From IMG/VR virus record IMGVR_UViG_3300045988_166055, positions 1-64,000 of that record: a DNA stretch of 64,000 nt, one strand, 5' to 3'. Below the pieces are notes generated by a model. It searched no databases, had not been told where the DNA came from, and saw only the letters and a program-made list of their open reading frames with translations. The position numbers and the translations under genes were made by a program. Every line of letters starts with the position of its first letter. Positions within the stretch are counted from its first letter, which is position 1. The stretch is from a virus. Shown here piece after piece: positions 5,018-58,958 of the stretch.

Positions 5018-5032
5018 GAATCGTTATTGTAG
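5018..5032 (+). promoter_or_regulatory. GAATCGTTAT motif site (candidate phage promoter)
   Basis: GAATCGTTAT directly followed by TGTAG, 61 nt upstream of the rnhA ATG. Confidence 0.4.
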
Positions 5033-5067
5033 ACGTACTAAACAATAGTGCGTCTACAATTTTTATA
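5027..5067 (+). terminator. rho-independent terminator after the HNH gene
   Basis: TTGTAGACGTACT/AGTGCGTCTACAA stem (~14 bp including one G-U), 5-nt loop, then ATTTTTAT. Confidence 0.65.
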
Positions 5068-5078
5068 GGTGAAATATT

Positions 5079-5540
5079 ATGAAAACAGTTAGAATCTATA
5101 CAGATGGGTCGTGTTTGGGAAATCCAGGTCAAGGCGGTTGGGCAGCTTGTTTGAAGTGCGATAAACAATACAAAGAAATATCAGGTGGAACAAAACATAC
5201 AACGAATAATGCAATGGAGCTTACAGCTATTTTAGAAGCTCTCAAATGCTTGAAGAAATCTCCGCTGATTGTTGAAATCTATTCTGATTCAAAATATGTT
5301 GTTGATGCTTTCAGGAAAGACTGGATAAGTAATTGGAGAGCGAAAGGATTTCTAAGAAATCCGTTTGATCCAAATTCTGAATACATACCTAATGCCAAAA
5401 TTTGGATAGAAATTCTAAAAGAAGTAGACAAACATGATGTTTATTTCAATTGGGTAAAAGGTCATTCGGGAGATGTAATGAATGAACGATGCGATCATCT
5501 GGCCAAAGCTGCTGCACGGTGGTATCGTGATAATGGATAA
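5079..5540 (+). CDS. rnhA: ribonuclease H (type 1)
   Basis: IYTDGSCLGNPG, NNAMELTA, YSDSKYV, WVKGHSG..NERCDHLA: the DEDD residues in canonical order. Confidence 0.9.
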   Translation: MKTVRIYTDGSCLGNPGQGGWAACLKCDKQYKEISGGTKHTTNNAMELTAILEALKCLKKSPLIVEIYSDSKYVVDAFRKDWISNWRAKGFLRNPFDPNSEYIPNAKIWIEILKEVDKHDVYFNWVKGHSGDVMNERCDHLAKAAARWYRDNG

Positions 5541-5543
5541 GAG

Positions 5544-6023
5544 GTGAATGATATGAAAATATTTGCATTTTCAGATGCAAAAGATAATATAAAGAATAAA
5601 TTGAAAGACAAATCAGATGAGCTAGTTTATCATTTAGTCAAGATATTTATCTTTCCTAATTGCGGAATAACATCTCATTGGTGTCAAGAAGTATATGGAT
5701 TTATTCACTCTGTACCTAAAATGAAAAACAAAAATAAATTTCAAAAGAAGGAATTTATTTTTGACAACACTTTTGGAGTATGGGGTGACACAGTTGAATC
5801 ATGTATCATAACTGCCATAAAAGATTATCCTAATCTAGTTCCAATGTTTAACAAAGAAAATGGATTAGGTGTTTGTGAAGCAGCAGTTAGAAAGTATTTT
5901 AATTGGCTTTCAGAAGAACTTTCTAACATTGGAAGAGTTGCATCGTCCGATGTATACAAGAAAATTGATTCACTGATTGAGGAGGTCATTCAAGAACTAG
6001 ACAACAATAAGCCTACTCTATGA
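5544..6023 (+). CDS. hypothetical protein
   Basis: 159-aa ORF, co-oriented and tightly packed. No family recognised by eye. Confidence 0.5.
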   Translation: MNDMKIFAFSDAKDNIKNKLKDKSDELVYHLVKIFIFPNCGITSHWCQEVYGFIHSVPKMKNKNKFQKKEFIFDNTFGVWGDTVESCIITAIKDYPNLVPMFNKENGLGVCEAAVRKYFNWLSEELSNIGRVASSDVYKKIDSLIEEVIQELDNNKPTL

Positions 6024-6035
6024 AAAATAAAGAAA

Positions 6036-6550: not shown

Positions 6551-6593
6551 TAGCTGTGATAATTGAATTTATCACAGCTAATTTTTGATTTTT
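6551..6593 (+). terminator. rho-independent terminator
   Basis: TAGCTGTGATA 6551-6561 pairs with TATCACAGCTA 6570-6580 (11 bp), then ATTTTTGATTTTT. Confidence 0.75.
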
Positions 6594-6607: not shown

Positions 6608-6617
6608 TTATCGTTAT
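6608..6617 (+). promoter_or_regulatory. variant motif site TTATCGTTAT
   Basis: Variant of the AATCGTTAT motif, 39 nt upstream of ATG 6647 and just after the terminator. Confidence 0.3.
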
Positions 6618-6646
6618 TGATATTAAATTTAATGGAGGATATCAGC

Positions 6647-7440: not shown

Positions 7441-7935
7441 ATGAAAATGCGAAGATCTAAATCAACAAAGCTTCAATCAGTGACAGCTGCTTCAAATATA
7501 GGAACAACATATTACAGAGCAACATTAGACAATGTTATTCAAACGCTCACAAGAAACGATGCAAACCTTTTTCTTCTTTATTTAATTGAAGAAGATGGAT
7601 TCGATGCTCTAGACTTCAAGAGTCATATGTTTGGAAGTGCAGTTGTTGAAGAAAACAATGAAGATGTCATTTACATTTGTGTTACAGACGGATATGAAAT
7701 TGAAGTAGATAGAGAAATGGTTGATCCGGAAGAAGCACTCGAGAATTATGCTCCTATCTATCTTGAAAATCATATTCAAGATGCAAATGATGATATTATA
7801 ATGAGAAGCATAACTCCTTACGAACTATCAGATTTTGACGAGTCTTCCGTTGCAAGAGGCATACTTAGAACCTATGATGTTAGCTTCAAGAAAGTAGTTT
7901 CTGATTTTGAAGAAATTGAAAATATGAATAGATAA
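7441..7935 (+). CDS. hypothetical acidic protein
   Basis: 164-aa ORF, co-oriented. No family recognised. Confidence 0.5.
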   Translation: MKMRRSKSTKLQSVTAASNIGTTYYRATLDNVIQTLTRNDANLFLLYLIEEDGFDALDFKSHMFGSAVVEENNEDVIYICVTDGYEIEVDREMVDPEEALENYAPIYLENHIQDANDDIIMRSITPYELSDFDESSVARGILRTYDVSFKKVVSDFEEIENMNR

Positions 7936-7945
7936 GAATCGTTAT
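7936..7945 (+). promoter_or_regulatory. GAATCGTTAT motif site
   Basis: Exact 10-mer immediately after stop 7935, 55 nt upstream of ATG 7991. Confidence 0.4.
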
Positions 7946-7990
7946 TATGTTTGAACATATCAAGACCATTCAAATTGAGGAGATTAAAAT

Positions 7991-8218
7991 ATGAATAATG
8001 AAATGTTTTCTATCAAGTTCAAAGGCATTGTTTATGATGACGCCTGGAGGGATAGCGCAGGGCACATTTGGTTTGGCGGTAACAAATATGAATATGTTCC
8101 TTTTAATAGTATTTTCAATAGACCTGAACATGTAATTATTCACAATTTCGTTCAGACTGAATTCTGCTTTTCTTTGAATCCAAAAACATCATATGCAAAG
8201 ATCAAAATTTTAGATTAA
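7991..8218 (+). CDS. hypothetical protein
   Basis: 75-aa ORF preceded by GAGGAG. Confidence 0.45.
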   Translation: MNNEMFSIKFKGIVYDDAWRDSAGHIWFGGNKYEYVPFNSIFNRPEHVIIHNFVQTEFCFSLNPKTSYAKIKILD

Positions 8219-8223
8219 AATAA

Positions 8224-8233
8224 GAATCGTTAA
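8224..8233 (+). promoter_or_regulatory. variant motif site GAATCGTTAA
   Basis: Lies 80 nt upstream of ATG 8304 and overlaps the terminator 5' arm. Confidence 0.3.
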
Positions 8234-8274
8234 ATACATTGCAAGCAGAATAGTTTGCAATGTATTTTATTTTG
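8233..8274 (+). terminator. rho-independent terminator
   Basis: AATACATTGCAA 8233-8244 pairs with TTGCAATGTATT 8255-8266 (12 bp), then TTTTATTTT. Confidence 0.75.
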
Positions 8275-8303: not shown

Positions 8304-9053
8304 ATGATAGTCAATATAGGATTACACATCAACACATTAACTAATGATCTGCGCCAAGCTCGCAATGATCGCAACCTATCAAGAAAGGAATATTTATCAA
8401 TGGATGTAGTAAAGAATATGCGTGGAAGTATGTGGTGGTTGAAAGACGAATTCGATAAGTATAAAGGTCAAAGAGGAATCCTTAGAGGTTCTAGACCAAT
8501 TATCATTATCAACAATCCTGCAAATGATTACAATGATTGTACTATCACTTATCTTCCTATCTCTAAGTGCGAATCTCATGCAGGAGATGACAGTCGAATT
8601 CAAATGTTCTACGAAGTACCTATTCAAATTCCTGGAAACAAATCAAGCTATGTATGTTGTAATAGTATTACAACTACAACTACCACACATCTAGGAGAAT
8701 ATATCGGGCAAATTTCAGAAAGTAAGCTAAAAGAAGTTGAAAACGAACTTATTCGTTATCTTTCTCTTTCTATTTCTGAAAAAGTAGTTACACGAGAGGT
8801 AGTAAAGGAAGTTAAGGATCTAGAAAAGACGCCTAAAACAACTGCTTTTTCTATTACAGATGCTGTCGCTTGCCCTGAGCTCAAAAAAGTATATTCTAAT
8901 TGTACTGAGATGGCCAAAGAACTTGACTGTTCTCCTGCATCTATCAGTAAAGCAAGTAGATGGGGAAGTAAGCTGATGCACAAATATACTGTGTTTAAGG
9001 TAGCAACTGCTACTGGAAATTATATTGATAAAACTAAGGAGGAAAACAAATGA
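8304..9053 (+). CDS. PemK/MazF-like domain protein with a C-terminal HTH-like region
   Basis: GSMWWLKDEF...RGSRPIIIINN...ITYLPISKCES...SSYVCCNSITTTTTTHLGEYIGQISESKLKEVENELIRYLSL follows the PemK/MazF SH3-like barrel pattern. The start is uncertain (ATG 8401 is an alternative). Confidence 0.4.
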   Translation: MIVNIGLHINTLTNDLRQARNDRNLSRKEYLSMDVVKNMRGSMWWLKDEFDKYKGQRGILRGSRPIIIINNPANDYNDCTITYLPISKCESHAGDDSRIQMFYEVPIQIPGNKSSYVCCNSITTTTTTHLGEYIGQISESKLKEVENELIRYLSLSISEKVVTREVVKEVKDLEKTPKTTAFSITDAVACPELKKVYSNCTEMAKELDCSPASISKASRWGSKLMHKYTVFKVATATGNYIDKTKEENK

Positions 9054-10077: not shown

Positions 10078-10842
10078 TCAGAAAGCTTCTCTAAGATCTT
10101 GGCTTGACCTTAATCTAGAATAAAGTATTATTTCTGCTGTTTTTAGTTTACCACGAATAGTCCTATCATCTATTCCATAGATATCACAAATTTCAAAAAT
10201 ATCATTGTTTGTAAGTTTTCTTTCTCTATCTATCATCTCTCTTATCAATAATTCTTCTACTGTATCATATTTATCAGTAAGTTCTTCATCAAATTTGCTA
10301 AAAGATCCTTCTTCTGAAGATAAAAATGGTTCATGAGTGTCTAAATCTGCTATATAAAGTGTTCCAAATATGGCCTTCAAAGAATTCATCTTTTCGGCAG
10401 GTAAATTTAATCTAGGATCCATAAGATCATCGTACTTTACTTGCCCCCAGTGTTTTCCAAGTTGTTTTCCGACCTCCATACATAGAGAACGACGTATAGA
10501 ATATTTAACTTCATTCAGCTCTCTTTCTATCATCTCACCTACACGGAGTTTGAAAAACACTGTAAAAGAAAGATCGCATCGGTATCCTTTATGAGTTTCA
10601 TCACCCTGCCATAGATACCACCACCAGCATTCGCAAAAGTGCAGCAAGGCTGACTGAAGCTTATCTTCATATGTAACAGAAGTATTGTTTATGAATGTAT
10701 GCGATGCTATGTACCCGAAAAAAGAATAGTTAAGTTCAATTACTCTGTCACGAACATCTGTACGTTTCATTCTAAGTTCTTTTTCTTGAGGAAGAGATTG
10801 ATATAGTCGTATAGTTTCTTCTTTGATTTCTTTCATATTCAT
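10078..10842 (-). CDS. sigma-70-family-like transcription factor (putative phage sigma)
   Basis: Region-2-like RDRVIELNYSFFGYIASH...YEDKLQSALLHFCECWWWY...FTVFFKLRVGEMIEREL. Region-4-like HTH LTNNDIFEICDIYGIDDRTIRGKLKTAEIILYSRL. The track start 10851 is TTG; ATG 10842 is more likely. Confidence 0.5.
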   Translation of the reverse strand: MNMKEIKEETIRLYQSLPQEKELRMKRTDVRDRVIELNYSFFGYIASHTFINNTSVTYEDKLQSALLHFCECWWWYLWQGDETHKGYRCDLSFTVFFKLRVGEMIERELNEVKYSIRRSLCMEVGKQLGKHWGQVKYDDLMDPRLNLPAEKMNSLKAIFGTLYIADLDTHEPFLSSEEGSFSKFDEELTDKYDTVEELLIREMIDRERKLTNNDIFEICDIYGIDDRTIRGKLKTAEIILYSRLRSSQDLREAF

Positions 10843-10935
10843 AAACAACAACTCACTTTATTTTTCAATTTTGTATTCGCACCTAAAAACACAACCTTTG
10901 ATAATCTTGAATGCACAATTATTGTCTTCAATATT

Positions 10936-10964: not shown

Positions 10965-11119
10965 TAGAATTTTTGAATATTTATTTGATTTTATTTATTT
11001 TATCTATTTGAAAACTGTAGAATAAAATTAAAGTATTAACGAATCGTAAATTTTTTATAAATTTTTGTTTCATGCCTATTTTGATAATAATCATAAGATG
11101 TGCCAAATTCAAGAAGTTC

Positions 11120-11560
11120 ATTATGAAATATTCAAATATCTAAATAAGTAGATATTCAAATTGAAAGAAATTGAATATTTCATTTAATTTTAATTTTCAA
11201 TAATATTTCAAATTGATGTAGTAATATTTCATATTCTTTCAAATTCGTTAAAATTTACAATTTTTGAATATTTCATAATCTTTCAAATTAGTTGTAAATA
11301 TCACTAAATATTTCAATTTGATAGAAATTGGTTAATTTTATAATATTCCTGAATATTTCAAATTCACTAAAATTTTCAAAATATTTCAATTTGTAAATAT
11401 CACATAATCTTTCATATTTATTCAATTTGAAGTAAAATGTAAATTCCATTGTTTTATTCAAATCTTCATATTTTAGAGTATTCAGTAAAATTGAAAGAAA
11501 ATGAAAATTTCAAATTCGAATAAAATTAAAATTTGATTTCAATTTGAAAGATTTTCCAAT
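11120..11560. repeat. AT-rich array of dispersed AATATTTCA(A/T)(A/T)TT repeats (iteron-like)
   Basis: Copies or variants start at 11127, 11152, 11174, 11202, 11223, 11267, 11307, 11352 and 11380, with TTTCAAATT half-sites at 11237, 11281, 11508 and 11538. TTGTAAATATCAC occurs at 11292 and 11391, and ATAATCTTTCA at 11276 and 11404. No ORF. Confidence 0.6.
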
Positions 11561-11808
11561 TTTCATCTCGCATATATAATATCTTTGAGATAATAGAGTG
11601 AATGAAATGAACGATATAAAAGAGAAAAAGAAATAATTGAAATAAGGATATAATAGCGCCTCGCCACTCTAGAAATAAAAATAAGCTCGCAAAGCTCGCA
11701 TAGAGCGCTTTACGATGATAGCATAAATTTGCTTTTTATGGATGAAATCGAACCGCATTGACCTTCATACTAAGAAACAAAAAATTTCAAAATTTTCTAA
11801 CAAAGGTA

Positions 11809-11837
11809 TTGACTTTTCGACAAAAAGGTATTATACT
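11809..11837 (+). promoter_or_regulatory. consensus sigma-A/sigma-70 promoter (early)
   Basis: GGTATTGACTTTT...TATACT. The -35 TTGACT is 11809-11814, the spacer is 17 nt, and the -10 TATACT is 11832-11837. TGTAG follows 5 nt downstream. Confidence 0.7.
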
Positions 11838-11939: not shown

Positions 11940-11949
11940 GAATCGTTAT
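11940..11949 (+). promoter_or_regulatory. GAATCGTTAT motif site inside the long leader
   Basis: Exact 10-mer, 326 nt upstream of ATG 12266. Confidence 0.35.
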
Positions 11950-12009
11950 TCTACTTGCACCTGGTCATAAAATTTCAAATAAAATACAGAGTCAAAGTTG
12001 GGTCACATG

Positions 12010-12238
12010 GAGTGCCAATTTTGTACTCCCTATCAACTAATTCAAATTACTATTGAGAGAGTTGACTGCTTGATATCCGTCAGGGTATCTGGCAGGTCAG
12101 TAGGGATTTGGATTAGCAGGAAAACAGCAGTTTAGTAAGATAGGGCGGAGACGCTTAAGCGTTACTTCGTCGTCAGGTGTTCGCTGCACATGACAGCTAT
12201 TCTGAACTCTGCTGGTAGTGAGTGCAAAATTGACACTC
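12010..12238 (+). ncRNA. candidate structured RNA domain (leader element or stable ncRNA), class unknown
   Basis: Outer helix GAGTGCCAATTTTGTACTC 12010-12028 pairs with GAGTGCAAAATTGACACTC 12220-12238 (19 positions, 1 mismatch, 1 G-U). Nested inside are a hairpin at 12063-12099, the helix CAGCAG 12125-12130/CTGCTG 12209-12214, and hairpins at 12144-12171 and 12179-12207. The segment is locally GC-rich. Confidence 0.4.
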
Positions 12239-12265
12239 TATTTGCTTTATACGGAGGAAATTTGA

Positions 12266-17624: not shown

Positions 17625-17933
17625 TTGTATATTTCCAGTCATAACGACAATTTTATGAACAAGAACATTGATAAGCCTTATGAAGATAGATTTGATTATA
17701 CAGTATACGAGATGATCATTTCTGAAATGAATGCTGAAATTTCTAGACAAAACAAAAGGATTGAAGCATTTAAGCTTGTAGAAGAGATGAATAATCAGAT
17801 GATTGATGCTTTGATTGAAGCTAATCGTCGTCTTCAATCTGAACTTGAGAAGGGAATTGATCCGAATGATAGATATTACAGATCTAAGCCTGGACGGGTA
17901 CCAGTTAGAAAGAGTTCTAGACATAAGGAGTAA
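17625..17933 (+). CDS. hypothetical coiled-coil protein
   Basis: TTG start 7 nt after AAGGAGG. 102 aa. Confidence 0.45.
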   Translation: MYISSHNDNFMNKNIDKPYEDRFDYTVYEMIISEMNAEISRQNKRIEAFKLVEEMNNQMIDALIEANRRLQSELEKGIDPNDRYYRSKPGRVPVRKSSRHKE

Positions 17934-18150
17934 ATGCAGACGAATCATTGACTGGATGCTGAATGAGAAGTGTTCAATTCGTGATTGTGCAAAAGATGTA
18001 GGAATGCCTAAATCAACTGTTCATCAATATATTCACAAATATATCAAAGACGGTTGGGATGAAGAGTATCAAGAGATAAAAGTTATACTTCGATGGAATA
18101 AACGAGAGCGGTTCAAGCCTAAGAAATATTGGCGTGGTAGGCAGTGGTAA
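17866..18150 (+). CDS. SpoIIID-like HTH transcriptional regulator
   Basis: RSKCRRIIDWMLNEKCSIRDCAKDVGMPKSTVHQYIHKYI parallels the SpoIIID N-terminal HTH (..VSKSTVHKDL..). Size is ~94 aa if it starts at ATG 17866, which overlaps the upstream gene by 68 nt. The start is uncertain. Confidence 0.55.
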   Translation: MIDITDLSLDGYQLERVLDIRSKCRRIIDWMLNEKCSIRDCAKDVGMPKSTVHQYIHKYIKDGWDEEYQEIKVILRWNKRERFKPKKYWRGRQW

Positions 18151-19383: not shown

Positions 19384-19412
19384 TTGACTTTTTCATTAAA
19401 ACATATTATAAT
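19384..19412 (+). promoter_or_regulatory. consensus sigma-A/sigma-70 promoter (early)
   Basis: GGTATTGACTTTTT...TATAAT. The -35 is 19384-19389, the spacer is 17 nt, and the -10 is 19407-19412. TGTAG follows 5 nt downstream. Confidence 0.7.
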
Positions 19413-19482
19413 ATGTTTGTAGTTAATCAGTCAACATCAAAGCCAGACAAATCAAAATTTATCAATATTGGAGGAACCAAAG

Positions 19483-20175
19483 ATGGCAAGAAGACCTTTG
19501 TACAAGCAAGTTTCCGCTTTTGAGAGCACTAATAGACATAGAGTTGCTCGTGGTGTTGAGCCTATTCCGACGGTCAATCCGTTTAAGGCTACTTTCAACA
19601 TGTTCCGCGAGTATCTCGGCTACGTCAGACCGCTGACCTATTCCGAGTGGATGGAAGTTGATCCCGAAGATAAGGCAGCGGTTCTTTATGTGCAGTTTTA
19701 CGATCAGATTACACTTGCATGGTACAAGTCTCGCAGTTTCTATGCACAGGAAGAAGACGGAGTATCTACCATGATGCAGTATCTTATCAAGAACGTTCCC
19801 GTTCTTGAGAAAGATCCTAAGCGGTTCTCTGAACGGTACATCTATCGTGTTGCTTACAACTGTTTGTATTGCATCTGTCACGATATCAAGGTCGACAAAG
19901 ACCGTTACGAGCTTGAAACTAGCAACATTCAGGCTACTGATGGTGATGATGAGGTTGATCTTTTCAATCTTGTTCAGTCTAATTTCTCTATTCAGACAAC
20001 TATCAATAAGGAGAAGTTCTGGGAAGTTGTCATGTCTATGGACGACGATGTATTGACCTTCGTAGATTGTCTTATCAATAAGACTCGTTTTCCTGCAGGA
20101 ATGAAAGCTAAGAGTGCTTCTTACATTGGGAAGCTTCGTGTAGCTCTTAAGGATTTCCAGGACATGGATTATTGA
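19483..20175 (+). CDS. putative sigma-like factor (ECF/region-2-like)
   Basis: DKAAVLYVQFYDQITLAWYK...EEDGVSTMMQYLIKNV...FSERYIYRVAYNCLYCI resembles sigma region 2, and the C-terminus is HTH-like. ATG lies 7 nt after GGAGGA. Confidence 0.4.
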   Translation: MARRPLYKQVSAFESTNRHRVARGVEPIPTVNPFKATFNMFREYLGYVRPLTYSEWMEVDPEDKAAVLYVQFYDQITLAWYKSRSFYAQEEDGVSTMMQYLIKNVPVLEKDPKRFSERYIYRVAYNCLYCICHDIKVDKDRYELETSNIQATDGDDEVDLFNLVQSNFSIQTTINKEKFWEVVMSMDDDVLTFVDCLINKTRFPAGMKAKSASYIGKLRVALKDFQDMDY

Positions 20176-20244: not shown

Positions 20245-20265
20245 GAATCGTTATTACATATGTAG
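20245..20265 (+). promoter_or_regulatory. GAATCGTTAT-N6-TGTAG motif site
   Basis: Exact bipartite form, 33 nt upstream of ATG 20278. The SD GAGGAGG follows TGTAG. Confidence 0.5.
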
Positions 20266-28855: not shown

Positions 28856-28870
28856 GAATCGTTATTGTAT
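28856..28870 (+). promoter_or_regulatory. GAATCGTTAT-TGTAT motif site
   Basis: Immediately after the terminator, 34 nt upstream of ATG 28890. Confidence 0.45.
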
Positions 28871-28889
28871 ACATAGGAGAGTGTATGAT

Positions 28890-31106: not shown

Positions 31107-31116
31107 TAATCGTTAT
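31107..31116 (+). promoter_or_regulatory. TAATCGTTAT motif site
   Basis: Exact 9-mer core, 50 nt upstream of ATG 31157. Confidence 0.4.
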
Positions 31117-31156
31117 CAAAGATAAGTAAACTATATGATTTGAAAGGTGTTTATAC

Positions 31157-40849: not shown

Positions 40850-40869
40850 GTTTGATGGAGGTGAAATAG

Positions 40870-42691: not shown

Positions 42692-42702
42692 GAGGTGATA
42701 AT

Positions 42703-44473: not shown

Positions 44474-44507
44474 ACCTTGTATACTTTTAGAAAGAGGTGA
44501 GGAAATA

Positions 44508-44744
44508 GTGATATATTATAAAAATACATCATCTAGGAAGCTCACATTTCATGGTGTAGAATTTGGTCCAGGAGAAATAAAGCCTGTTCCAGATTTTATA
44601 AATACATTGTGCATGGTTCGTTGCGATAAGCCATCTGAGCCTGTCAGACGAATTGATCATGTTAAGCAGGAAAAGAAAGCACAATCTACACCTGCTATTA
44701 AAGTAAATAATGAGCAAGGAGGAATTACTGATGGCTCAGATTAA
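44508..44744 (+). CDS. hypothetical protein
   Basis: 78-aa ORF after AGAGGTGAGG. Confidence 0.45.
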   Translation: MIYYKNTSSRKLTFHGVEFGPGEIKPVPDFINTLCMVRCDKPSEPVRRIDHVKQEKKAQSTPAIKVNNEQGGITDGSD

Positions 44745-46602
44745 CATCAATGAGATAAGCCAAAGCTACAGCTATAATATCGGTACTAACGCTTATTGCA
44801 CAGTTGCAATGCCTATTACTTCCTGCTGGGGTCCCGGATACTTTGATAAAGAAAAACAAGGTCTTACAGAGGATGATATTCTAGAGAATCTTCGTTGGGA
44901 GCATTTCGCTGCTACTCAAGAAGGCTTAGAGAGTTTCGTATCTACTTATAGAGGCCCTGCTTCTAATTATCGTTCAGCAAAAGATTTCTCATATCAGATG
45001 GCCATGACTCTTCTTACTGCAGGCTACGATGTTCTTGCATGCAGAGTTTGCCCTGGTACTCCTTCCGGAGGTACACTTAAGATTGACGATAGCAACAATC
45101 TTATCATCAAATCAAAGTACCCTGGAACTTTTGGAAACAATCTTCGTTGTGCGTTTAAGAAAGCTCGTTCAGTTTTCTTGGTTGATGGAAAGACTAAGCA
45201 AGTTGATTACTGGAACATGATTGTTTATGTCCTGGATGCGTCTGGAGTAAAAACAGCCGTAGAGAATTTGAACTTTGTTTTCGAAGTCGCAAATTCAAAT
45301 GATTCACTCTACCATATTTCCGAGATTGAGTCTAATTTCGTACAATTTTCTGGCTATGATGCCCTTACAGATGCGCTTTCATTATCCGGTACAGTGAACG
45401 TAGATCTTGCTGGAGGACACGACGCATCTGCAAACGGTGAAAGCGCTGCTATGCTGAAAGAAGCAGCAGATCTCGCTACTCTTCGTTATAAAACAGCTCT
45501 TGGGTCTGCCGACGGAGTAGCTTATGTAGCCAGACTATCTGAATTAACTACATCTGATGAAAACAAAGCAGCTATCATTCGTTATAAAGAATGGGTTTAC
45601 AACGCTGCATACTCTGCAATGGATAAGCTGAAGGATAAACTGTCTTATAACTACAACAGAATTGTTATGCCAGGCTGGGACGATCAAGATTTCTCGTCTG
45701 TAGTTGAAAATTATTCATATGATGATACCAACACAAAATTTGTCATTTCACCTCTGCACATTAGAATGATGGATGTAGCATATAACAGTCGTTGTGGTAC
45801 TGCTTACATTGACATTCCTAAGAGCCTTCCTCGTTCTAAGGTATGGAACGAGAAGGATGGTCAGGAAGGATACTCTCAGATGCTTGCAAGATTCCAGCCG
45901 GACAACACAAGCTTTGATCTAAATGCAAGCCTTTATACATCTCATTCTGCTCTATTTGCTCCTTGGGGCAATTACATCTATGTTGGAACTTCTAAGCAGA
46001 ATGAAGCTTCTCCTTCTTTCATGGCATTGATGATAGAAAGAGCGATGATCCTGAATCAGTCAAGTCAGTATGAATGGGCTCTGCCTACTACTCGTAGACA
46101 TAACCTGAAGATAGGAAAGCTTGCTTACAGTGTAAACAAGCATCTTCTAGATGATTGGCAGGGTACAGAAGGCGTAGGAGTCAATGTTATTACAGACATT
46201 CCTGACATGGGCATGAGCTTATGGGGCAATAGTACTCTATTTGAGGTGCCTGTAGCAACATATCAAGCTCTTGCTAATCTTTCTACTAGAAAGCTTGTCA
46301 ATGCTGTCGAGGATCAAGCATACAGATGCGGAATTAACATCACCTTCCAGTACAACAACGAGGATGCTTATAGTAGTTTCTACGCTGGTATGACTCCGTT
46401 ACTCGATACAATGAAGTATCAAGGAGCTATCGAGGACTACTATATCAAGATGGCAGCCGATGTAAACGGTCTTGATAGGGTGAATATCAACTCTGTCATC
46501 GGAAAAATCTATTTAACTGTCAACGGAGTTATAAACGACATAAACATCGATCTTATTGCTCTTCCTAGTTCTGTTGATCTCGATGAGTACAAAGCAGAAT
46601 AA
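44731..46602 (+). CDS. contractile tail sheath protein (T4 gp18-like)
   Basis: The N-terminus ...VAMPITSCWGPGYF... and ...DFSYQMAMTLLTAGYDVLACRV parallel the gp18 segments GKFQWGPAF and ADYFMSAMNFLQYGNDLRVVR. ATG 44731 lies 9 nt after AAGGAGG. ~623 aa. Confidence 0.65.
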   Translation: MAQININEISQSYSYNIGTNAYCTVAMPITSCWGPGYFDKEKQGLTEDDILENLRWEHFAATQEGLESFVSTYRGPASNYRSAKDFSYQMAMTLLTAGYDVLACRVCPGTPSGGTLKIDDSNNLIIKSKYPGTFGNNLRCAFKKARSVFLVDGKTKQVDYWNMIVYVLDASGVKTAVENLNFVFEVANSNDSLYHISEIESNFVQFSGYDALTDALSLSGTVNVDLAGGHDASANGESAAMLKEAADLATLRYKTALGSADGVAYVARLSELTTSDENKAAIIRYKEWVYNAAYSAMDKLKDKLSYNYNRIVMPGWDDQDFSSVVENYSYDDTNTKFVISPLHIRMMDVAYNSRCGTAYIDIPKSLPRSKVWNEKDGQEGYSQMLARFQPDNTSFDLNASLYTSHSALFAPWGNYIYVGTSKQNEASPSFMALMIERAMILNQSSQYEWALPTTRRHNLKIGKLAYSVNKHLLDDWQGTEGVGVNVITDIPDMGMSLWGNSTLFEVPVATYQALANLSTRKLVNAVEDQAYRCGINITFQYNNEDAYSSFYAGMTPLLDTMKYQGAIEDYYIKMAADVNGLDRVNINSVIGKIYLTVNGVINDINIDLIALPSSVDLDEYKAE

Positions 46603-46610: not shown

Positions 46611-46631
46611 AAATCGTTATAATCAGTGTAG
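46611..46631 (+). promoter_or_regulatory. AAATCGTTAT-N6-TGTAG motif site
   Basis: Bipartite form, 75 nt upstream of ATG 46686. It overlaps the terminator stem. Confidence 0.4.
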
Positions 46632-46668
46632 ATATCAATTTAGATATCTACACTGATTTTTTAATTTT
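46621..46668 (+). terminator. rho-independent terminator after the sheath gene
   Basis: AATCAGTGTAGATATC 46621-46636 pairs with GATATCTACACTGATT 46643-46658 (16 bp), then TTTTTT. Confidence 0.8.
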
Positions 46669-46685: not shown

Positions 46686-47096
46686 ATGGATGTTAAGATG
46701 AATTTTGGTCATGGTGGAATTGGATGGTGGGCTTTCGTCCTTGAAGATGACGACCTTGTCATTGGTTATCAGTCAGAAGAAAAGTATGATGAAATGTATA
46801 GAGGTAACTTCAAAGGTGTTGATACTCCTCACATTTTTGATATCATGCGCGATGATATTGAAATGTTCTTAAAAATCATAAAGTATTATAAGTGGAGTGC
46901 TGTTCCTTTCCTTAATAATGTTGCCTGTGAAGGATATACTAGAGCAATTGGAGATGTCGTCAAGCTTCTGCCTATGGATATCTATACAGATGCTATTATT
47001 GACGCAGTTAAAAACAATGATACTGATTTGAACAAAGTTGTTCTAAAAGTTGTTGAAAATATTTCAAACTACTATTCTCTTATGCATAAGGGGTGA
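46686..47096 (+). CDS. hypothetical protein
   Basis: 136-aa ORF after CGGAGG. Confidence 0.5.
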   Translation: MDVKMNFGHGGIGWWAFVLEDDDLVIGYQSEEKYDEMYRGNFKGVDTPHIFDIMRDDIEMFLKIIKYYKWSAVPFLNNVACEGYTRAIGDVVKLLPMDIYTDAIIDAVKNNDTDLNKVVLKVVENISNYYSLMHKG

Positions 47097-51303: not shown

Positions 51304-51313
51304 AAATCGTTAT
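51304..51313 (+). promoter_or_regulatory. AAATCGTTAT motif site
   Basis: 40 nt upstream of ATG 51344, after the terminator. Confidence 0.4.
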
Positions 51314-51343
51314 TGAAATTAAGTAAAGATATGAGGTGTAGTT

Positions 51344-51541
51344 ATGAAGAAAACATTCTATCCTGTTTTATGTTCTAAAGATGACATTGAGACATCTGGA
51401 TATGATTTTCACGGATATAGGATAACTAATTCAGGTAGCGGTTGGGTTGTTAGAGGTGGAGGACAGCGAGTCTCTCCCTATTTTGCAACTTCGGATGAAG
51501 CTGAGGAATTTATTCTTGACATGGAGAATGACGATGATTGA
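51344..51541 (+). CDS. hypothetical protein
   Basis: 65-aa ORF after GAGGTG. Confidence 0.45.
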   Translation: MKKTFYPVLCSKDDIETSGYDFHGYRITNSGSGWVVRGGGQRVSPYFATSDEAEEFILDMENDDD

Positions 51542-51958: not shown

Positions 51959-51970
51959 ATACAAATTTGA

Positions 51971-52001
51971 ATGACGAGTCTTTCAGGCTCGTCATTTTTT
52001 A
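51971..52001 (+). terminator. rho-independent terminator
   Basis: ATGACGAGTC 51971-51980 pairs with GGCTCGTCAT 51986-51995 (one G-U), then TTTTTT. Confidence 0.8.
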
Positions 52002-52012: not shown

Positions 52013-52033
52013 GAATCGTTATTATGATTGTAA
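52013..52033 (+). promoter_or_regulatory. GAATCGTTAT-N6-TGTAA motif site
   Basis: After the terminator, 63 nt upstream of ATG 52076. Confidence 0.45.
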
Positions 52034-52075: not shown

Positions 52076-52561
52076 ATGTCTTGGATCAATGTAAATGAGC
52101 AGGGAGTTCCTGTAAATGATGAAAGATATCACAACAGATTCAGTTTGTCTTTAGAGTACAAGCCTACTTATGGGCACGCTCTTTGTGTAGAGAAGGAGGA
52201 CGTCATTGCAAGATACAATCGACCCGATGATACCTTCTACGAAGAGAAGACAGGAAAGCCGATCAATTACAGTGATATTCAGTCATGGTATTGTTCATTT
52301 GATGACGGTGAAATCGGAATGAAAATTATTCACCAGGCTGAATTCAAAGTCAAAGGTCTTATGAATGAAATTGTAGTTTGCTACTACATGTTTGGTTATT
52401 ATCTAGTCGATGTTTGGTTTCAGACAGAAGAAACAGATGACAACTCTCCTACTAGAATTAACTACATTAAAACTAAATATTTTACAGTCGCAGAGAAAAA
52501 ATATTATCAGAAGCTGTCTGACCTAAACAAGACAATAGAGGAAAGAGAAAATGTTTGCTGA
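52076..52561 (+). CDS. hypothetical protein
   Basis: 161-aa ORF after TAGGAGG. Confidence 0.55.
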   Translation: MSWINVNEQGVPVNDERYHNRFSLSLEYKPTYGHALCVEKEDVIARYNRPDDTFYEEKTGKPINYSDIQSWYCSFDDGEIGMKIIHQAEFKVKGLMNEIVVCYYMFGYYLVDVWFQTEETDDNSPTRINYIKTKYFTVAEKKYYQKLSDLNKTIEERENVC

Positions 52562-53739: not shown

Positions 53740-53760
53740 GAATCGTTATATTGAATGTAG
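53740..53760 (+). promoter_or_regulatory. GAATCGTTAT-N6-TGTAG motif site
   Basis: Exact bipartite form, 46 nt upstream of ATG 53786. Confidence 0.5.
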
Positions 53761-55002: not shown

Positions 55003-55710
55003 ATGAGTACTATCAACTGGGCTGAAAACGAAATTGAGATTGTAAGAAACCGTCTCAAGTCTTCGCCTGAAGAAGAAGGAGGCGAAAATGATTACATTTT
55101 AGGATGCTATGAATCCGCATTTAAGGCATTCAAGTCCCTACTCGAGGATGGTCATTCAGGAATGTCTATTTCTATAACTAAATCAATTTTGATTCGTCTA
55201 ATTGATGGACGTCCTCTTAACGACATTCAGGATACAGAAGACGTATGGAATGAAGTTTCAGGATTGAGCAAGGATGTGAAAGAATATCAATGCTCTAGAA
55301 TGTCTTCGCTGTTCAAGAAAGTGTATCCTGATGGGTCTGTTAAGTACAACGATATTTACCGATCTGTCTGCGTCAATGTAGACGATCCGAGAAATGTGTT
55401 CAACGGATATGGATGCAGAATTCTAGACGAGATGCTTCCTATTGAGATGCCTTATTCTCCTTCGTCTAAACAGTATAAAATTTACTGCAAAGAATTCCTT
55501 TATGACGAAGACGGAGGGGATTTCGACACGCTTGGAGTACTTTACGCAATTTCTCCTGAAGGTGAAAAAATCAATATCGAAAGATACTTCAAGGATGTTA
55601 AAGGTACTCCAGGTTGGGTAGAAATCAATTCAGATGAATATTTATACAGAATGTATCATCAATTTAGAACAAATCCGGTTTCTGAGATGATGGATGACTC
55701 TAAAAATTAA
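55003..55710 (+). CDS. hypothetical protein
   Basis: 235-aa ORF. Confidence 0.55.
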   Translation: MSTINWAENEIEIVRNRLKSSPEEEGGENDYILGCYESAFKAFKSLLEDGHSGMSISITKSILIRLIDGRPLNDIQDTEDVWNEVSGLSKDVKEYQCSRMSSLFKKVYPDGSVKYNDIYRSVCVNVDDPRNVFNGYGCRILDEMLPIEMPYSPSSKQYKIYCKEFLYDEDGGDFDTLGVLYAISPEGEKINIERYFKDVKGTPGWVEINSDEYLYRMYHQFRTNPVSEMMDDSKN

Positions 55711-56080: not shown

Positions 56081-56129
56081 ATTGTAATAAGTAAATATTA
56101 TATCTTCAAGGCAAGATCTTGTGTCTATA

Positions 56130-56156
56130 GGCTGGTCAAATAACCCTTGACCAGCC
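56130..56156 (+). terminator. hairpin upstream of nrdD (terminator or regulatory)
   Basis: GGCTGGTCAA 56130-56139 pairs with TTGACCAGCC 56147-56156 (10 bp). The T-tail (TTATATAC) is weak. Confidence 0.45.
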
Positions 56157-56199
56157 TTATATACATATACAACGATACTAACTAGGAGGTAGTTGCTAA

Positions 56200-58431
56200 A
56201 TGAGAATAATTAAACGAAGCGGAGTAGAGGAAGATTTCAACTCCGCTAAAATTATATCTGCGTTAAATAGAGCAAATGCAGAGGTTGAGGGTGACGACAA
56301 GTTATTTCAATATGACGTCGAAGGAATTGCAAGGGCAATAGAGCAAGAAGCAAAGACATGCGACAAACCTCTAAATGTAGAAGAAATTCAAGATATGGTA
56401 GAAGATAGCATAATGTCTTTAGGAAAGTACGCATTGGCTAGAAAGTACATTAAATATCGTCAAGTTCATTCAATGAGTAGAGACAAGTATGATGACTTGA
56501 TGAAAGCAGTTGCAGACAAACTGCTTGGAAGAAAAATTGACAATCAGAATGCAAATGTAGACGAACATTCTTTCGGGGGAAGAATGGGAGAAGCTAACGA
56601 TGTAGTTTGCAGACAATTTGCACTTGACTTTCTTGTTTCTGAAAAGGCAAAGAAGAATCATATTGACAATCGTGTATACATCCATGACCTTAACAGCTAT
56701 GCTGTGGGAAATCATAATTGTCTTAGCGTACCATTTGACGATTTGCTTGCAAACGGATTCATTGTAAAGCAGACAGATGTTAGACCTGCAGGGTCATTGA
56801 ATACAGCTTTTCAGCTTGTAGCAGTCATATTTCAGTTGCAATCTTTGCAGCAGTTTGGCGGAGTTAGCTCAACGCATCTTGACTGGACAATGGTTCCTTA
56901 TTTAAGAAAGTCTTTCTATAAGCACTTCATCAAAGGTGTAAAATATATTGAAAATTTTAGGGGCAAAGGCTTAGACATATATAACAAAGAGATGTCAATT
57001 GACGACAAAGCTTACCACCATTTTCCAAAGGCTTATCAATATGCTATGGACATGACAAAAGAAGAATGTCATCAAGCAGTAGAGGGAATGTACCACAACT
57101 TAAATACACTTCAAAGTAGATCGGGAAACCAGTTGCCGTTTACATCTATCAATTACGGTACATGTACTTTGCCAGAAGGAAGAATGGTAACAAAGGCTGT
57201 TCTTGATCTGTCAATTGAAGGCCTAGGTAAATTAAATAGAACATCTATTTTCCCTTGCGGAATATTTCAGTGTATGAAGGGTGTAAATAGACATCCTGGA
57301 GATCCAAATTATGACCTATTCAGACTTGCATTGAAGTCTACAGCATTAAGACTGTATCCAAATTATTGTAATGTAGACTGGTCTGGAAATGCAGGATATG
57401 ACGTAAATGATCCTAGAACATATTTTTCTACGATGGGCTGTCGAACAGCTAACGGATACGACATAAACGGATTAGGGCAGCTAAAAGATGGAAGAGGAAA
57501 TATTTGCCCTACAACTATAATTCTTCCTACTTTGGCTATGGAAGCTAAAAAGAAAATAGAAAAATTAGCTTATTTGTCAAATTCTTCAGCATCTGAATAT
57601 GATTTGAAATCAGAATTCCTTTCTATTTTAGATGAAGCAATATCAGATGCAAGAGATTCATTGATTGAAAGATACAAATGGATTTGCAGTCAATCTCCGG
57701 ATTCAGCTAAGTTCATGTATGAAAACAATTTGATGGCAGGATATGTTCCAGAAGAAGGAATTGAATCAGCGCTTAAACATGGGACTCTTGCCATTGGGCA
57801 AATTGGACTTGCCGAAACTCTTCAGATACTGATTGGATGCGACCATACAACTAGAGAAGGTATGGAGTTTGCACAAGAAATTGAGTATCTTTTCAACAAA
57901 CGATGCAAGGAATTCAAAGAGGGTTATCACCTTAACTTTGGAGTTTATTATACACCTGCTGAAAATCTTTGTTACACCGCAATGAAGAAGTTCAAGGAAA
58001 AGTATGGCGTAATAAAAGATGTATCTGATAAGGAATTCTTTACTAATTCTATACATGTTCCTGTTTGGAAGCATATTGATCCATTTGAAAAAATAGACAT
58101 AGAATCACAGCTTACTGGATATTCAAATGCTGGATGTATAACTTATGTAGAGTTAGGAAGCAGCTGTAAACACAATCTAGATGCTCTTGAGACGCTTGTC
58201 AATTACGCAATGGATAAAGATATTCCTTATTTCGCAATAAATGTACCAAATGATCAATGTATGGAATGCGGATATTGCGATGAAATGAATGATACTTGCC
58301 CTAAATGCGGTAGCAAGGATATCAAGAGGCTGAGAAGAGTAACTGGCTATCTAACCAACGATTACAAAACATCTTTCAATAAGGGTAAGCAGCAAGAAGT
58401 AGAAATGAGAGTAAAACACGATTCCTTCTAA
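56200..58431 (+). CDS. nrdD: anaerobic ribonucleoside-triphosphate reductase NrdD
   Basis: N-terminal ATP-cone IIKRSGVEEDFNSAKI. C-terminal CMECGYC...CPKCGS zinc site and glycyl-radical motif RRVTGYL. 743 aa. Confidence 0.95.
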   Translation: MRIIKRSGVEEDFNSAKIISALNRANAEVEGDDKLFQYDVEGIARAIEQEAKTCDKPLNVEEIQDMVEDSIMSLGKYALARKYIKYRQVHSMSRDKYDDLMKAVADKLLGRKIDNQNANVDEHSFGGRMGEANDVVCRQFALDFLVSEKAKKNHIDNRVYIHDLNSYAVGNHNCLSVPFDDLLANGFIVKQTDVRPAGSLNTAFQLVAVIFQLQSLQQFGGVSSTHLDWTMVPYLRKSFYKHFIKGVKYIENFRGKGLDIYNKEMSIDDKAYHHFPKAYQYAMDMTKEECHQAVEGMYHNLNTLQSRSGNQLPFTSINYGTCTLPEGRMVTKAVLDLSIEGLGKLNRTSIFPCGIFQCMKGVNRHPGDPNYDLFRLALKSTALRLYPNYCNVDWSGNAGYDVNDPRTYFSTMGCRTANGYDINGLGQLKDGRGNICPTTIILPTLAMEAKKKIEKLAYLSNSSASEYDLKSEFLSILDEAISDARDSLIERYKWICSQSPDSAKFMYENNLMAGYVPEEGIESALKHGTLAIGQIGLAETLQILIGCDHTTREGMEFAQEIEYLFNKRCKEFKEGYHLNFGVYYTPAENLCYTAMKKFKEKYGVIKDVSDKEFFTNSIHVPVWKHIDPFEKIDIESQLTGYSNAGCITYVELGSSCKHNLDALETLVNYAMDKDIPYFAINVPNDQCMECGYCDEMNDTCPKCGSKDIKRLRRVTGYLTNDYKTSFNKGKQQEVEMRVKHDSF

Positions 58432-58445
58432 GGTGGTACTGATAT

Positions 58446-58958
58446 ATGAATTATATTAAAATATCTAAATGCGACATTGCAAATGGACTAGGATTCAGAG
58501 TTGTCCTTTGGGTATCAGGATGTAATCATAATTGTAAAGGCTGTCATAATCCTCAGACCCATGACTATTCAGCTGGAAAAGTATTTGATAACGATGCTTT
58601 AGAATATCTTATCAAATGCCTTTCAAAGCCTTATATCAGAGGCCTAACTATTTCTGGAGGCGATCCAATGTCTCCTAGAAATAGATCAAAAGTGATTGAT
58701 ATATGCAGAGCAGTAAAGCATGATTTTGGAAGTAAGAAAGATATCTGGATATACACCGGAAACGAGTTTAACTTGAGAGAATATTTCTTTCCCGTAGATG
58801 TAGTAGTTGATGGACCATATATAGAAAGCCTTCGTGACATTTCGCTTCCTTTTAGAGGTAGCTCAAACCAAAGGATAATTGATGTGAAGAAGACACATGA
58901 GGAAACGAACACACTTCTAGATCAGAGAATCGTTATTTACAATGTAGACAATAATTAA
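58446..58958 (+). CDS. nrdG: anaerobic RNR activating enzyme NrdG (radical SAM)
   Basis: DIANGLGFRVVLWVSGCNHNCKGCHNPQT; LTISGGDP. Confidence 0.9.
   Translation: MNYIKISKCDIANGLGFRVVLWVSGCNHNCKGCHNPQTHDYSAGKVFDNDALEYLIKCLSKPYIRGLTISGGDPMSPRNRSKVIDICRAVKHDFGSKKDIWIYTGNEFNLREYFFPVDVVVDGPYIESLRDISLPFRGSSNQRIIDVKKTHEETNTLLDQRIVIYNVDNN
58927..58947 (+). promoter_or_regulatory. GAATCGTTAT-N6-TGTAG motif site within the nrdG 3' end
   Basis: Exact bipartite form, 66 nt upstream of ATG 58993. Confidence 0.45.

Follow-up and report, generated by a model that had tools for sequence, protein, structure and literature searches.

The 64,000-nt window analysed here comprises positions 1-64,000 of the virus record IMGVR_UViG_3300045988_166055. 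Its parent is a ~148-kb gut myophage, itself uncultured like its host, which belongs to a large metagenomic and wholly uncultured clade of large gut and environmental phages. The subject of this report is a short word, AATCGTTAT, which recurs on the + strand of the window, mostly between genes. This motif is a genuine, deeply conserved regulatory element and, judging from its sequence context, very probably a promoter. A candidate for the protein that would read it, a 235-amino-acid (235-aa) protein with a sigma-like predicted fold, is encoded in the same window. Relatives were fetched through this protein, which yielded 35 IMG/VR loci and five metagenome loci (L-numbers below are labels of loci from relatives) with protein identities ranging from 99% to 30%.

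Nearly all genes of the window lie on the + strand. Searches with Pfam and PHROGs identified QueF, QueC, QueD and QueE, GTP cyclohydrolase I and a DpdA-like transglycosylase, a set that indicates 7-deazaguanine DNA modification. They also identified RNase H, dCMP deaminase, a MazF-like protein, a DnaB-type helicase, primase, SSB, a family-A DNA polymerase, clamp-loader-like AAA+ proteins, RecA and a Holliday-junction resolvase, as well as a T4-type portal, a tail sheath, a DUF932 protein, the anti-Thoeris protein Tad3 and NrdD/NrdG. No near-identical DNA was found among 50,697 GenBank phage records. The polymerase is ~35% identical to Firmicute phage polymerases, and the portal has a single match among GenBank phages, to Streptococcus phage vB_SagM-GXN1 at 24% identity. 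Strain-level relatives with 91-96% identity are IMG/VR contigs of 80-149 kb, and an ENA contig of 148 kb encodes QueC and NrdG proteins identical to those of the window. Based on these contig sizes and identical proteins, the window is the non-structural half of a ~148-kb myophage plus its packaging/portal/sheath block. In a sister genome, tail-fibre genes flank the corresponding region on the left and a tape-measure-like gene on the right. Scans of the whole window for tRNAs and Rfam families returned no match.

Fifteen sites carry the motif, 12 as exact copies and three with one mismatch. They are listed below, with coordinates running from the motif start through the predicted transcription start (+1).

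5019..5035, + strand: site 1, AATCGTTAT; predicted +1 at G5035; within terminator hairpin 5026-5060; RNase H gene 5079-5540 (Pfam match) downstream
6609..6625, + strand: site 2, TATCGTTAT; 29 nt past terminator 6551-6580, with an ATG downstream at 6647
7937..7953, + strand: site 3, AATCGTTAT; begins 1 nt past the stop of gene 7441-7935; gene 7991-8218 downstream
8225..8241, + strand: site 4, AATCGTTAA; nested in terminator hairpin 8232-8267; MazF/PemK-like gene 8304-9053 downstream
11941..11957, + strand: site 5, AATCGTTAT; in a 2.2-kb gene-poor region, 104 nt downstream of the −10 hexamer of the sigma-A-type promoter 11809-11837
20246..20262, + strand: site 6, AATCGTTAT; directly past the sigma-like gene, with the ATG of the PTPS/QueD-like gene 20278-20715 23 nt downstream; ortholog in L003-L005
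24077..24093, + strand: site 7, AATCGTTAA; the TAA of the motif is the polA stop codon; gene 24134-25258 downstream; post-polA ortholog in L003-L005
25926..25942, + strand: site 8, AATCGTTAT; within the 3' end of gene 25258-26034; clamp-loader-like AAA+ gene (26016/26040-27053) downstream
28857..28873, + strand: site 9, AATCGTTAT; ~5 nt past terminator hairpin 28817-28852, upstream of the Holliday-junction-resolvase-like open reading frame (ORF) that ends at 29393
31108..31124, + strand: site 10, AATCGTTAT; upstream of the DpdA-like (queuine tRNA-ribosyltransferase-like) gene 31157-32119; the sole site before the 15.5-kb block that extends to the sheath gene
46612..46628, + strand: site 11, AATCGTTAT; directly past the tail-sheath gene, within the terminator hairpin (~46621-46658) of that gene; gene 46686-47096 downstream
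51305..51321, + strand: site 12, AATCGTTAT; ~30 nt past a hairpin and T-run; gene 51344-51541 downstream
52014..52030, + strand: site 13, AATCGTTAT; ~17 nt past terminator 51969-51997; gene 52076-52561 downstream
53741..53757, + strand: site 14, AATCGTTAT; upstream of the DUF932 gene, whose Shine-Dalgarno (SD)-supported ATG lies at 53786 and whose ORF ends at 54730
58928..58944, + strand: site 15, AATCGTTAT; in the last 31 nt of the NrdG-like gene 58446-58958 (Pfam, sister contig L169); gene 58993-59196 downstream

The resolvase-like ORF was scanned from an ATG at 28881, and the start supported by an SD sequence is the in-frame GTG at 28885.

Within the window, AATCGTTAT is present in 12 exact copies on the + strand and in none on the − strand. 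Dinucleotide-preserving shuffles of the window contain 0.77 copies on average and four at most, and an order-2 Markov model predicts 0.24 copies of this word and 0.06 copies of GAATCGTTAT, of which eight are observed. Words from the motif are the most over-represented 8-, 9- and 10-mer of the window. Three one-mismatch copies occur in the same context (TATCGTTAT at 6609, and AATCGTTAA at 8225 and 24077), which brings the total to 15 sites; the remaining one-mismatch matches are chance-like, being either intragenic or located in a terminator loop (16548). Alignment of the 15 sites gives (A/T)G-AATCGTTAT-T-N5-T-G-n-A, with no conservation further upstream. Eleven of them are intergenic, although intergenic DNA, as measured from a crude ORF map, makes up 7.4% of the window (p=4e-10). 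Among the other sites, 6609 and 28857 overlap only spurious upstream extensions of ORFs called from TTG starts, which brings the intergenic count to 13, and 25926 and 58928 fall within the last ~30-110 nt of the upstream gene. The motif is present in about 13 of the ~36 intergenic gaps that measure 25 nt or more. The next start codon lies 21-70 nt past the motif end at 13 sites, ~105 nt past it at 25926 and 316 nt past it at 11941. TGTAG or TGTAA follows exactly 6 nt past the motif at 20246, 46612, 52014, 53741 and 58928, and directly abuts it at 5019 and 24077.

A previous, sequence-only reading of this window had reported the 12 exact copies on the + strand, and its coordinates proved exactly right. 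It had estimated less than one copy per strand in 64 kb, in agreement with the shuffles, and the count on both strands with shuffled controls that it had proposed gives a strong excess on the + strand and no copy on the other. The three variants that it listed are present, each placed 1 nt lower because the preceding base was included. Its description of all copies but one as lying 33-80 nt upstream of a start codon is approximately right, given the distances above with their two exceptions. The spacing of TGTAG/TGTAA that it described stands for the five sites at 6 nt and for the adjacent words at 5019 and 24077, but the word next to the motif at 28857 is TGTAT. A literature search for the motif word returned only chance matches to primers.

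As nearly all genes of the window share one strand, the window alone cannot separate a strand bias linked to transcription from one linked to replication. Relatives do separate them. In L038 and L039, where most genes are on the − strand, the motif is found on both strands, always intergenic and upstream of a co-oriented gene; it thus flips strand together with the genes.

The motif is kept throughout the clade. AATCGTTA(T) ranks among the top enriched, strand-biased 8-mers in most of the 35 IMG/VR loci. L003-L005 share ~55% protein identity and almost no DNA similarity with the window, and carry the motif in the same gaps, namely the gap between the 235-aa gene and the PTPS gene, the post-polA gap and the gene-poor region. 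More generally, the motif persists where the proteins of the clade are only 30-55% identical. The conservation in related phages that the sequence-only reading had suggested checking is therefore present, at orthologous gaps of a deeply diverged clade. At a shorter evolutionary distance, five orthologous sites were compared in seven strains that are 91-96% identical: substitutions affect two of 306 motif cells, compared with 5.5% in the ±60-nt flanks (p=6e-6), and a count by column finds one variable column among the 45 of the motif and 82 among the 571 of the flanks (p=0.01). By these sequence comparisons, purifying selection acts on the motif between strains. The core ATCGTTA hardly varies, so that relating motif variants to protein divergence was uninformative.

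Homology among the 91-96% identical strains often stops a few bases 5' of the motif (20246, 24077 and 28857 compared with L006-L014), so that the putative promoters coincide with mosaic, i.e. recombination, junctions. These motif-linked junctions are reminiscent of the mobile promoter/stem-loop cassettes of T4-type phages. The presence of the motif at homology breaks may help explain how modules are exchanged in these phages.

The anatomy of the start region was examined on 82 dereplicated AATCGTTAT sites from the whole clade, with positions numbered from the motif start. Outside the 9-mer, the informative positions are −1 (G preferred), +9 to +12 (weakly, with A/T, G/A, T and A), +15, +16 and +18 (A). 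Position +15 is T or C in 70 of the 82 sites and position +16 is A or G in 75, and 83% of the sites have a pyrimidine-purine (Y-R) step at +15/+16. At other offsets, such a step typically occurs in 17-38% of the sites (~25%), with one secondary peak of 54% at +11. Among the 79 sites followed by an SD sequence and a start codon, no SD sequence starts at +9..+17 and nine start at +18/+19: the ribosome-binding site is packed up to the predicted +1 and never ahead of it. Taken together, the Y-R step and the SD exclusion would place CGTTAT at the −10 position and +1 at +16, eight nt past the last T, with AAT as an upstream extension. In the sigma-A-type promoters of the clade, GTAG begins 6 nt after TATAAT, which points to TGTAG as a start region common to both promoter types.

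No −35 element is apparent, since there is no information upstream of −2 in either the 15 sites of the window or the 82 clade sites. The canonical sigma-70/sigma-A layout, with a −35 hexamer 16-18 bp from a TATAAT-like −10, is likewise absent, and CGTTAT lacks the A at hexamer position 2. The sequence-only reading had proposed a −10-type promoter with CGTTAT at −10, TGTAG as the start region and no conserved −35. The first two points gain support from the Y-R step, the SD exclusion and the sigma-A-type promoters, and the third holds both in the window and across the clade. The two sigma-A-type promoters in which it had noted TGTAG 5 nt past the −10 were confirmed, with hexamers that end at 11837 and 19412.

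A further feature of these sites is their relation to intrinsic terminators. Sites 6609, 28857, 51305 and 52014 are located about 5-30 nt downstream of a hairpin and T-run. At 5019, 8225 and 46612, by contrast, the terminator hairpin follows at once and the predicted +1 falls in its 5' arm. For these three nested sites, RNA folding gives −21.9 kcal/mol for the read-through transcript against −5.4 kcal/mol for RNA from +16 at 5019, −20.4 against −8.8 kcal/mol at 8225, and −26.1 against −11.7 kcal/mol at 46612, where the U-tract is detached. In all three, the U-tract abuts the stem in the read-through RNA, whereas the stem is apart from the U-tract in the RNA that starts at +16. With the hairpin weakened in this way, the upstream unit would terminate and the new transcript would escape. 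Such a promoter-in-terminator layout makes ready sense for a promoter but is difficult to account for by an RNA signal. It would insulate neighbouring units and is potentially reusable.

The genes downstream of the sites bear on the class of promoter to which the motif may belong. Besides small unknown genes, sites precede the RNase H gene, the MazF-like gene, the replication cluster (via a long leader), the PTPS-like gene, the post-polA gene, the clamp-loader-like gene, the resolvase gene, the DpdA-like gene, the post-sheath genes, the DUF932 gene and the genes past nrdG. An extra site is found ahead of the que operon in the sister genome, at L165:7355, just upstream of the window. By contrast, the motif is absent from 31157-46602, which carries the terminase, portal and sheath genes, and, in the sister genome, from 7 kb of tail-fibre genes to the left and from 10 kb to the right. 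Because the genes served belong to replication, nucleotide metabolism and DNA modification, and because no site lies in the tail genes or in the packaging/portal/sheath block, the distribution suggests a middle (delayed-early) class rather than a late one. Of the "middle or late regulon" put forward by the sequence-only reading, the middle part thus fits the genes served, and the late part does not, with no sites at virion genes. Late promoters of the structural genes were not identified.

Strong promoters of the host type are few in the window and are confined to the gene-poor region at 10-12 kb and to the following two places.

19384..19412, + strand: consensus sigma-A promoter, TTGACT-17-TATAAT followed by ATGTT-TGTAG, ahead of the sigma-like gene; kept in 19 of 25 genomes (window and 24 loci)
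62030-62058: consensus sigma-A-type promoter, TTGACT-17-TATAAT, directly past a terminator at ~61965-61985

These strong sigma-A promoters precede the − strand gene 10078-10851, the replication cluster from 12266, the sigma-like gene and an unknown gene at 62030-63307. Sigma-A-type promoters and motif sites occupy different gaps (site 5 in the gene-poor region aside). The ORF listed from a TTG at 62030 probably begins later, and the unit headed by the 62030-62058 promoter is likely early. No exact protein records were found for the ORFs 62030-63307 and 61303-61956.

Two putative regulatory proteins encoded between the gene-poor region and site 6 are relevant to the question of what reads the motif.

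19468..20175, + strand: candidate reader, the 235-aa protein; no Pfam or PHROG family; predicted two-domain helical fold most like sigma factors
17815..18150, + strand: SpoIIID-family helix-turn-helix (HTH) regulator (PF12116, E=3.4e-8, above the curated cut-off); a possible co-regulator and no sigma factor

The 235-aa protein has 381 homologs, none of them annotated. In a deep profile search of 1.84 billion proteins, the family appears as a tight island of 240 clusters at 50% identity, carried by uncultured phage genomes of ~120-195 kb, and no bridge to known sigma factors was found. A tblastn search with the protein against the 50,697 GenBank phage records gave no match. A confident AlphaFold2 (AF2) model built from 40 homologs (pLDDT 88) starts with a helical domain, followed by a β-hairpin and, at the C-terminus, a domain of three helices. 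When this model was compared with the PDB by Foldseek, sigma factors made up ~30 of the top 50 matches (best E=0.04, probability 0.94), including Bacillus subtilis SigH, sigma-S, sigma-A, sigma-32, and the extracytoplasmic function (ECF) factors sigma-H and sigma-E. A fold search of BFVD was similar, with ~15 of the top 50 matches named as phage sigma factors or RNA polymerase subunits; its top match, at 99% identity, is an uncharacterised protein of "Siphoviridae sp. ctgN495". The invariant residues of the family (Y124, Y126, V128, N131, C132, Y134, C135, I136, H138, D139, R146 and E150) sit on a long helix, 122-149, of the AF2 model, at the position of sigma region 2.3/2.4, which would contact the −10 element. 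According to the model, invariant residues on such a helix fit a near-invariant promoter beside a fast-diverging protein.

The sequence-only reading had spoken of two sigma-like proteins. One is the product of 19468-20175, sigma-like by predicted fold only. The other is probably the product of 17815-18150, which is a SpoIIID-family HTH protein; its match to the profile of the SPO1 sigma factor gp34 is a weak one of sigma-4-type HTH.

In L023 and L040, the sigma-A promoter of the sigma-like gene has the motif within its spacer, a dual arrangement compatible with early expression followed by positive feedback. The 5' untranslated region (UTR) of this gene, 19413-19467, and its counterparts in L001-L040 contain conserved CA-rich repeats (CATATCAAAA / ACATCAA). 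They are present in all clade members, whichever promoter precedes the gene, and may be a translational or autoregulatory operator.

The explanation that best accommodates these observations is that the motif is a phage-specific promoter without a −35 element, of middle class, likely read by the 235-aa sigma-like protein; we give it a probability of about 0.7. AATCGTTAT would be the promoter core, with CGTTAT at −10 and AAT as upstream extension, and transcription would start at the purine 8 nt past the last T, often the G of TGTAG. The ~15 promoters of the window and the one just upstream would head units for replication, recombination and nucleotide metabolism (nrdDG, RNase H), units for 7-deazaguanine modification (que operon, DpdA-like gene) and many small genes. 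In the proposed cascade, host sigma-A RNA polymerase would use TTGACT-17-TATAAT promoters to transcribe a small number of early units, among them the one encoding the 235-aa protein (19468-20175), and this protein would then redirect the host core polymerase to the AATCGTTAT promoters. Several of these promoters follow intrinsic terminators and three lie in the 5' arm of one, so that upstream transcripts would stop and motif-started ones continue. The reader would be a previously unrecognised sigma-like factor, and the type of control is likely of a kind well known in phages.

A number of points weigh against this explanation. First, the fold-match scores are weak, with E-values of 0.01-1 and TM-scores of 0.2-0.36, although low TM-scores are expected for two mobile domains and sigma factors are strikingly enriched among the matches. 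Second, sequence comparison does not connect the family to sigma factors: none of 40 family members matches the Pfam sigma models, including Sigma70_r2, Sigma70_r4 and ECF, at E≤5; phmmer and profile searches against PDB sequences found nothing; hhalign alignments to Escherichia coli RpoE, SPO1 gp34 and SPO1 gp28 are co-linear, with E=0.02-0.07 and a probability of at most 2%; and the profile-profile comparison with the gp34 family gives a probability below 1%. Third, the motif alone precedes the 235-aa gene in L033, L038 and L039, which would need read-through or another bootstrap unless another factor reads the motif. Fourth, the register of the −10 is ambiguous, in that a TATnnT beginning with the last three bases of the motif resembles a sigma-A −10 in L038 and L039. 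In addition, the co-occurrence of motif and 235-aa protein is biased, the loci having been collected by way of that protein, and in a motif scan of the whole collection the matches listed mix chance with clade hits; ~65 kb (about half) of the ~148-kb genome, flanked by tail genes, is outside the inspected part, and initiation at +16 is deduced from sequence only.

The ambiguous register leads to an alternative in which host sigma-A is appropriated in the style of T4 middle promoters. Sigma-A would read TATnnT from the last three bases of the motif, and AATCGT would dock a phage activator that replaces the −35 contact; candidates for this activator are the SpoIIID-like HTH protein and the 235-aa protein, the latter acting as a co-factor and not as a sigma. 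SpoIIID proteins bind asymmetric ~10-bp sites as monomers; the gene for the SpoIIID-family member of the window precedes the sigma-like gene by 1.3 kb, and L003 has a small ORF at the equivalent place. At most sites of L038 and L039, the bases from the TAT of the motif read TATAGT, TATAAT or TATTAT. Among the 82 clade sites, 75 have T or A at position +11 and one has G, and the 235-aa protein has no sequence-detectable sigma domains. However, this register would leave only 5 nt between the hexamer and the Y-R step, which is unusually short, and T is present at the would-be −7 in just 55% of the sites; it is ranked lower on these two grounds. An invariant T−12, A−11 and T−10 without an invariant T−7 is moreover the opposite of the usual sigma-A pattern, and the clade sigma-A promoters, with GTAG 6 nt past TATAAT, fit the CGTTAT register better. 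Appropriation of sigma-A is therefore considered unlikely.

A second alternative, which we regard as improbable, is that the motif is the promoter of a phage RNA polymerase (single-subunit, unconventional multisubunit or virion-packaged) encoded elsewhere in the genome. A compact, near-invariant 9-bp element that spans −16..−8, has a fixed start and lacks a −35 fits such an enzyme as well, and the ~65 kb beyond the inspected part could hold its gene. However, neither an RNA-polymerase Pfam domain nor a DFDGD-type motif was found in the window, and no such polymerase was found in the ~10-kb flanks of the sister genome. The very large ORF beyond the window is Ala/Gly-rich and tape-measure-like, and the remaining genome, bracketed by tail-fibre and tape-measure genes, is probably structural. 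Such a polymerase would also be needed early, yet the strong sigma-A promoters found precede other genes.

Finally, the idea that the motif acts in RNA, as a processing site (for the MazF/PemK-like protein 8304-9053 or a host RNase) or as a termination-modulating signal, can draw on its co-orientation with transcription between genes, on three copies immediately ahead of terminator hairpins and on the phage's own MazF-like protein, MazF enzymes being known to cut specific 3-7-nt RNA sequences, but it is hardly tenable, since four copies lie just past intrinsic terminators, where little RNA would include them, most copies have no nearby hairpin, the Y-R step 6 nt downstream and the SD exclusion before +18 are start-site features needless for cleavage, the motif of L023 and L040 lies in a sigma-A promoter spacer and thus upstream of the transcript of that promoter, and no structure or sequence around the motif is conserved except the start region.

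If the motif is indeed a promoter read by the 235-aa protein, it can be compared with several known systems. T4 late promoters (TATAAATA) are read by gp55, essentially a region-2-only sigma factor, together with gp33 and the sliding clamp. The two cases have in common a −10-only promoter of about 8-9 bp with no −35, a small and highly divergent phage sigma factor that redirects the host core polymerase (here as a proposal), and a myophage context with a T4-type portal and phage-encoded replication genes. They differ in that the consensus sequences are unrelated (AATCGTTAT against TATAAATA), and in that T4 late promoters serve virion genes whereas the motif serves replication, nucleotide and DNA-modification genes and is found in none of the tail genes. 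Unlike gp55, the candidate reader has a second, C-terminal helical domain, and the gp55 structure is absent from its top 50 PDB fold matches. Sigma factors of the phiEco32 gp36 type direct the host core polymerase to −10-only middle/late promoters with a ~9-bp consensus, TAATGTATA; both this consensus and the host phylum differ from the present case.

With ECF sigma factors, the motif shares a CG dinucleotide as the most informative part of the −10-region element. The predicted reader also resembles them in having two helical domains and no region-3-like domain, with ECF sigmas among its fold matches, and the motif ahead of the factor's own gene in some clade members resembles autoregulation. 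ECF (group 4) promoters combine an AAC-containing −35, at 16-17 bp, with a CG(T)-containing −10; by contrast, the clade has no AAC-type −35 and no conserved base upstream of −2, and the bipartite form is found only in the distant phage GXN1 described below.

In SPO1, whose sigma cascade in Bacillus subtilis has gp28 for the middle and gp33/gp34 for the late stage, the likeness lies in the order of events, from a host sigma-A early promoter to a phage sigma gene and then to promoters of a phage-specific class, and in the setting of a large Firmicute-type myophage. Late promoters of SPO1 consist of two parts, CGTTAGA(N17-19)GATATT, with CGTTAGA as the −35 (PMC3601020). The −35 given by the sequence-only reading agrees with this, and CGTTA is common to it and to the motif. 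The SPO1 analogy drawn there is nevertheless nominal only: SPO1 late promoters are bipartite (PMC3601020), the CGTTA word is at −10 here and at −35 in SPO1, and the candidate reader has no detectable relation to gp34. A SPO1-style −35 reading of the motif was rejected, since at 20246 and 28857 the start codons are only 23-24 nt past the motif and a −10 located 17-19 nt on would fall in or beyond the ribosome-binding site, leaving no room for it. No sigma factor of the Sigma70_r2-bearing gp34 type was found in the window or the clade loci, where hmmsearch with the gp34 profile weakly matches the SpoIIID-like HTH protein and nothing else. Membership in the SPO1 gp34 system was rejected as well, given the monopartite motif and a 235-aa family that is not detectably related to gp34. 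By analogy, the T4 late and phiEco32-type systems appear closest in promoter form, and SPO1 closest in logic.

Another comparison is offered by Streptococcus phage vB_SagM-GXN1 (PQ819873.1; L160-L163), a cultured phage of 176 kb. Its own motif, (A/G)ACTT-N15-ACGGTTAT-N5-Y-R, is bipartite and ECF-like, with 28 copies on the + strand and none on the − strand, almost all within the non-structural part at 3-116 kb. The spacing from TTAT to the start is the same as in the clade. No homolog of the 235-aa family was detected in GXN1, which makes this phage an analogy and not a member of the clade; it is possibly a distant cousin. No publication on phage GXN1 was found.

Site 11941 differs from the others in what follows it. 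From its predicted +1, it would head a gene-free leader of 306 nt, 11957-12262, ahead of the replication-gene cluster that starts at 12266. The folding energy of this leader is −105.9 kcal/mol (z=−6.5; 0 of 100 shuffles). A motif site and a leader of 290-580 nt are present at this place in every lineage of the clade, with z-scores of −4 to −11 against −1 to −3 for other long gaps; counterparts are L003:4009-4373, L013:1077-1396, L016:3505-3795, L022:3027-3603, L023:824-1299 and L040:2556-3090. Leader 11957-12262 has no Rfam match, and alignment across lineages gave no consensus fold, the sequences being too diverged. In the closing helix, a compensatory change from A-U to G-C separates the window from L013. 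The leader is therefore put forward, from its sequence and predicted folding, as a candidate for a new structured RNA upstream of replication genes.

The same gene-poor region of 2.2 kb contains, at ~11080-11570, dense imperfect AT-rich repeats of the TGAATATTTCA and AATTGAAAGAA types, in 13 repeat families. This array lies between divergent sigma-A-type promoters, adjoins the replication genes and looks like an iteron-type replication origin.

A more far-reaching proposal would join these elements. The 235-aa family might constitute a new, sequence-orphan sigma branch for −35-independent initiation at a near-invariant 9-bp element, and one such promoter, together with a sigma-A promoter, might drive the conserved 290-580-nt structured RNA by the iteron array, this RNA acting in origin firing or its control in a manner comparable to the R-loop origins at T4 middle promoters. 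As a whole, this proposal is doubtful; if true, orphan sigma branch and origin RNA would couple the transcription switch directly to the onset of replication. The proposed promoter itself would supply a transcription map for a large uncultured clade, with the boundaries of units and the division between early and middle genes, and could be used to annotate hundreds of metagenomic genomes. It also puts forward a protein family with no annotation as a sigma factor beyond the reach of sequence methods.

Several minor observations concern other genes. Those of the 7-deazaguanine pathway and their neighbours are at 380-4053 and 31157-32119 in the window and at L165:7975-9392, with a second PTPS-like gene at 20278-20715. 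From this full pathway, the DNA of the phage is probably modified. Two ORFs, 3254-3481 and 3478-4053, are called for GTP cyclohydrolase I, downstream of an endonuclease-like ORF with a NUMOD3 motif, and genes for a Vut_1 transporter and a short-chain dehydrogenase are located just upstream of the window. The homolog of anti-Thoeris Tad3 is encoded at 55003-55710 (E=3e-24), and the MazF/PemK-like protein 8304-9053 is fused to a C-terminal extension.

Two further words show a strand bias. ATCCCGAA has six copies on the + strand of the whole window, against 0.43 expected, and none on the − strand. In L016-L018, a CCAAAACCGGGTATT-like word is found in four copies, on the + strand only, with a 40-100-fold enrichment, and may be a second regulatory motif.

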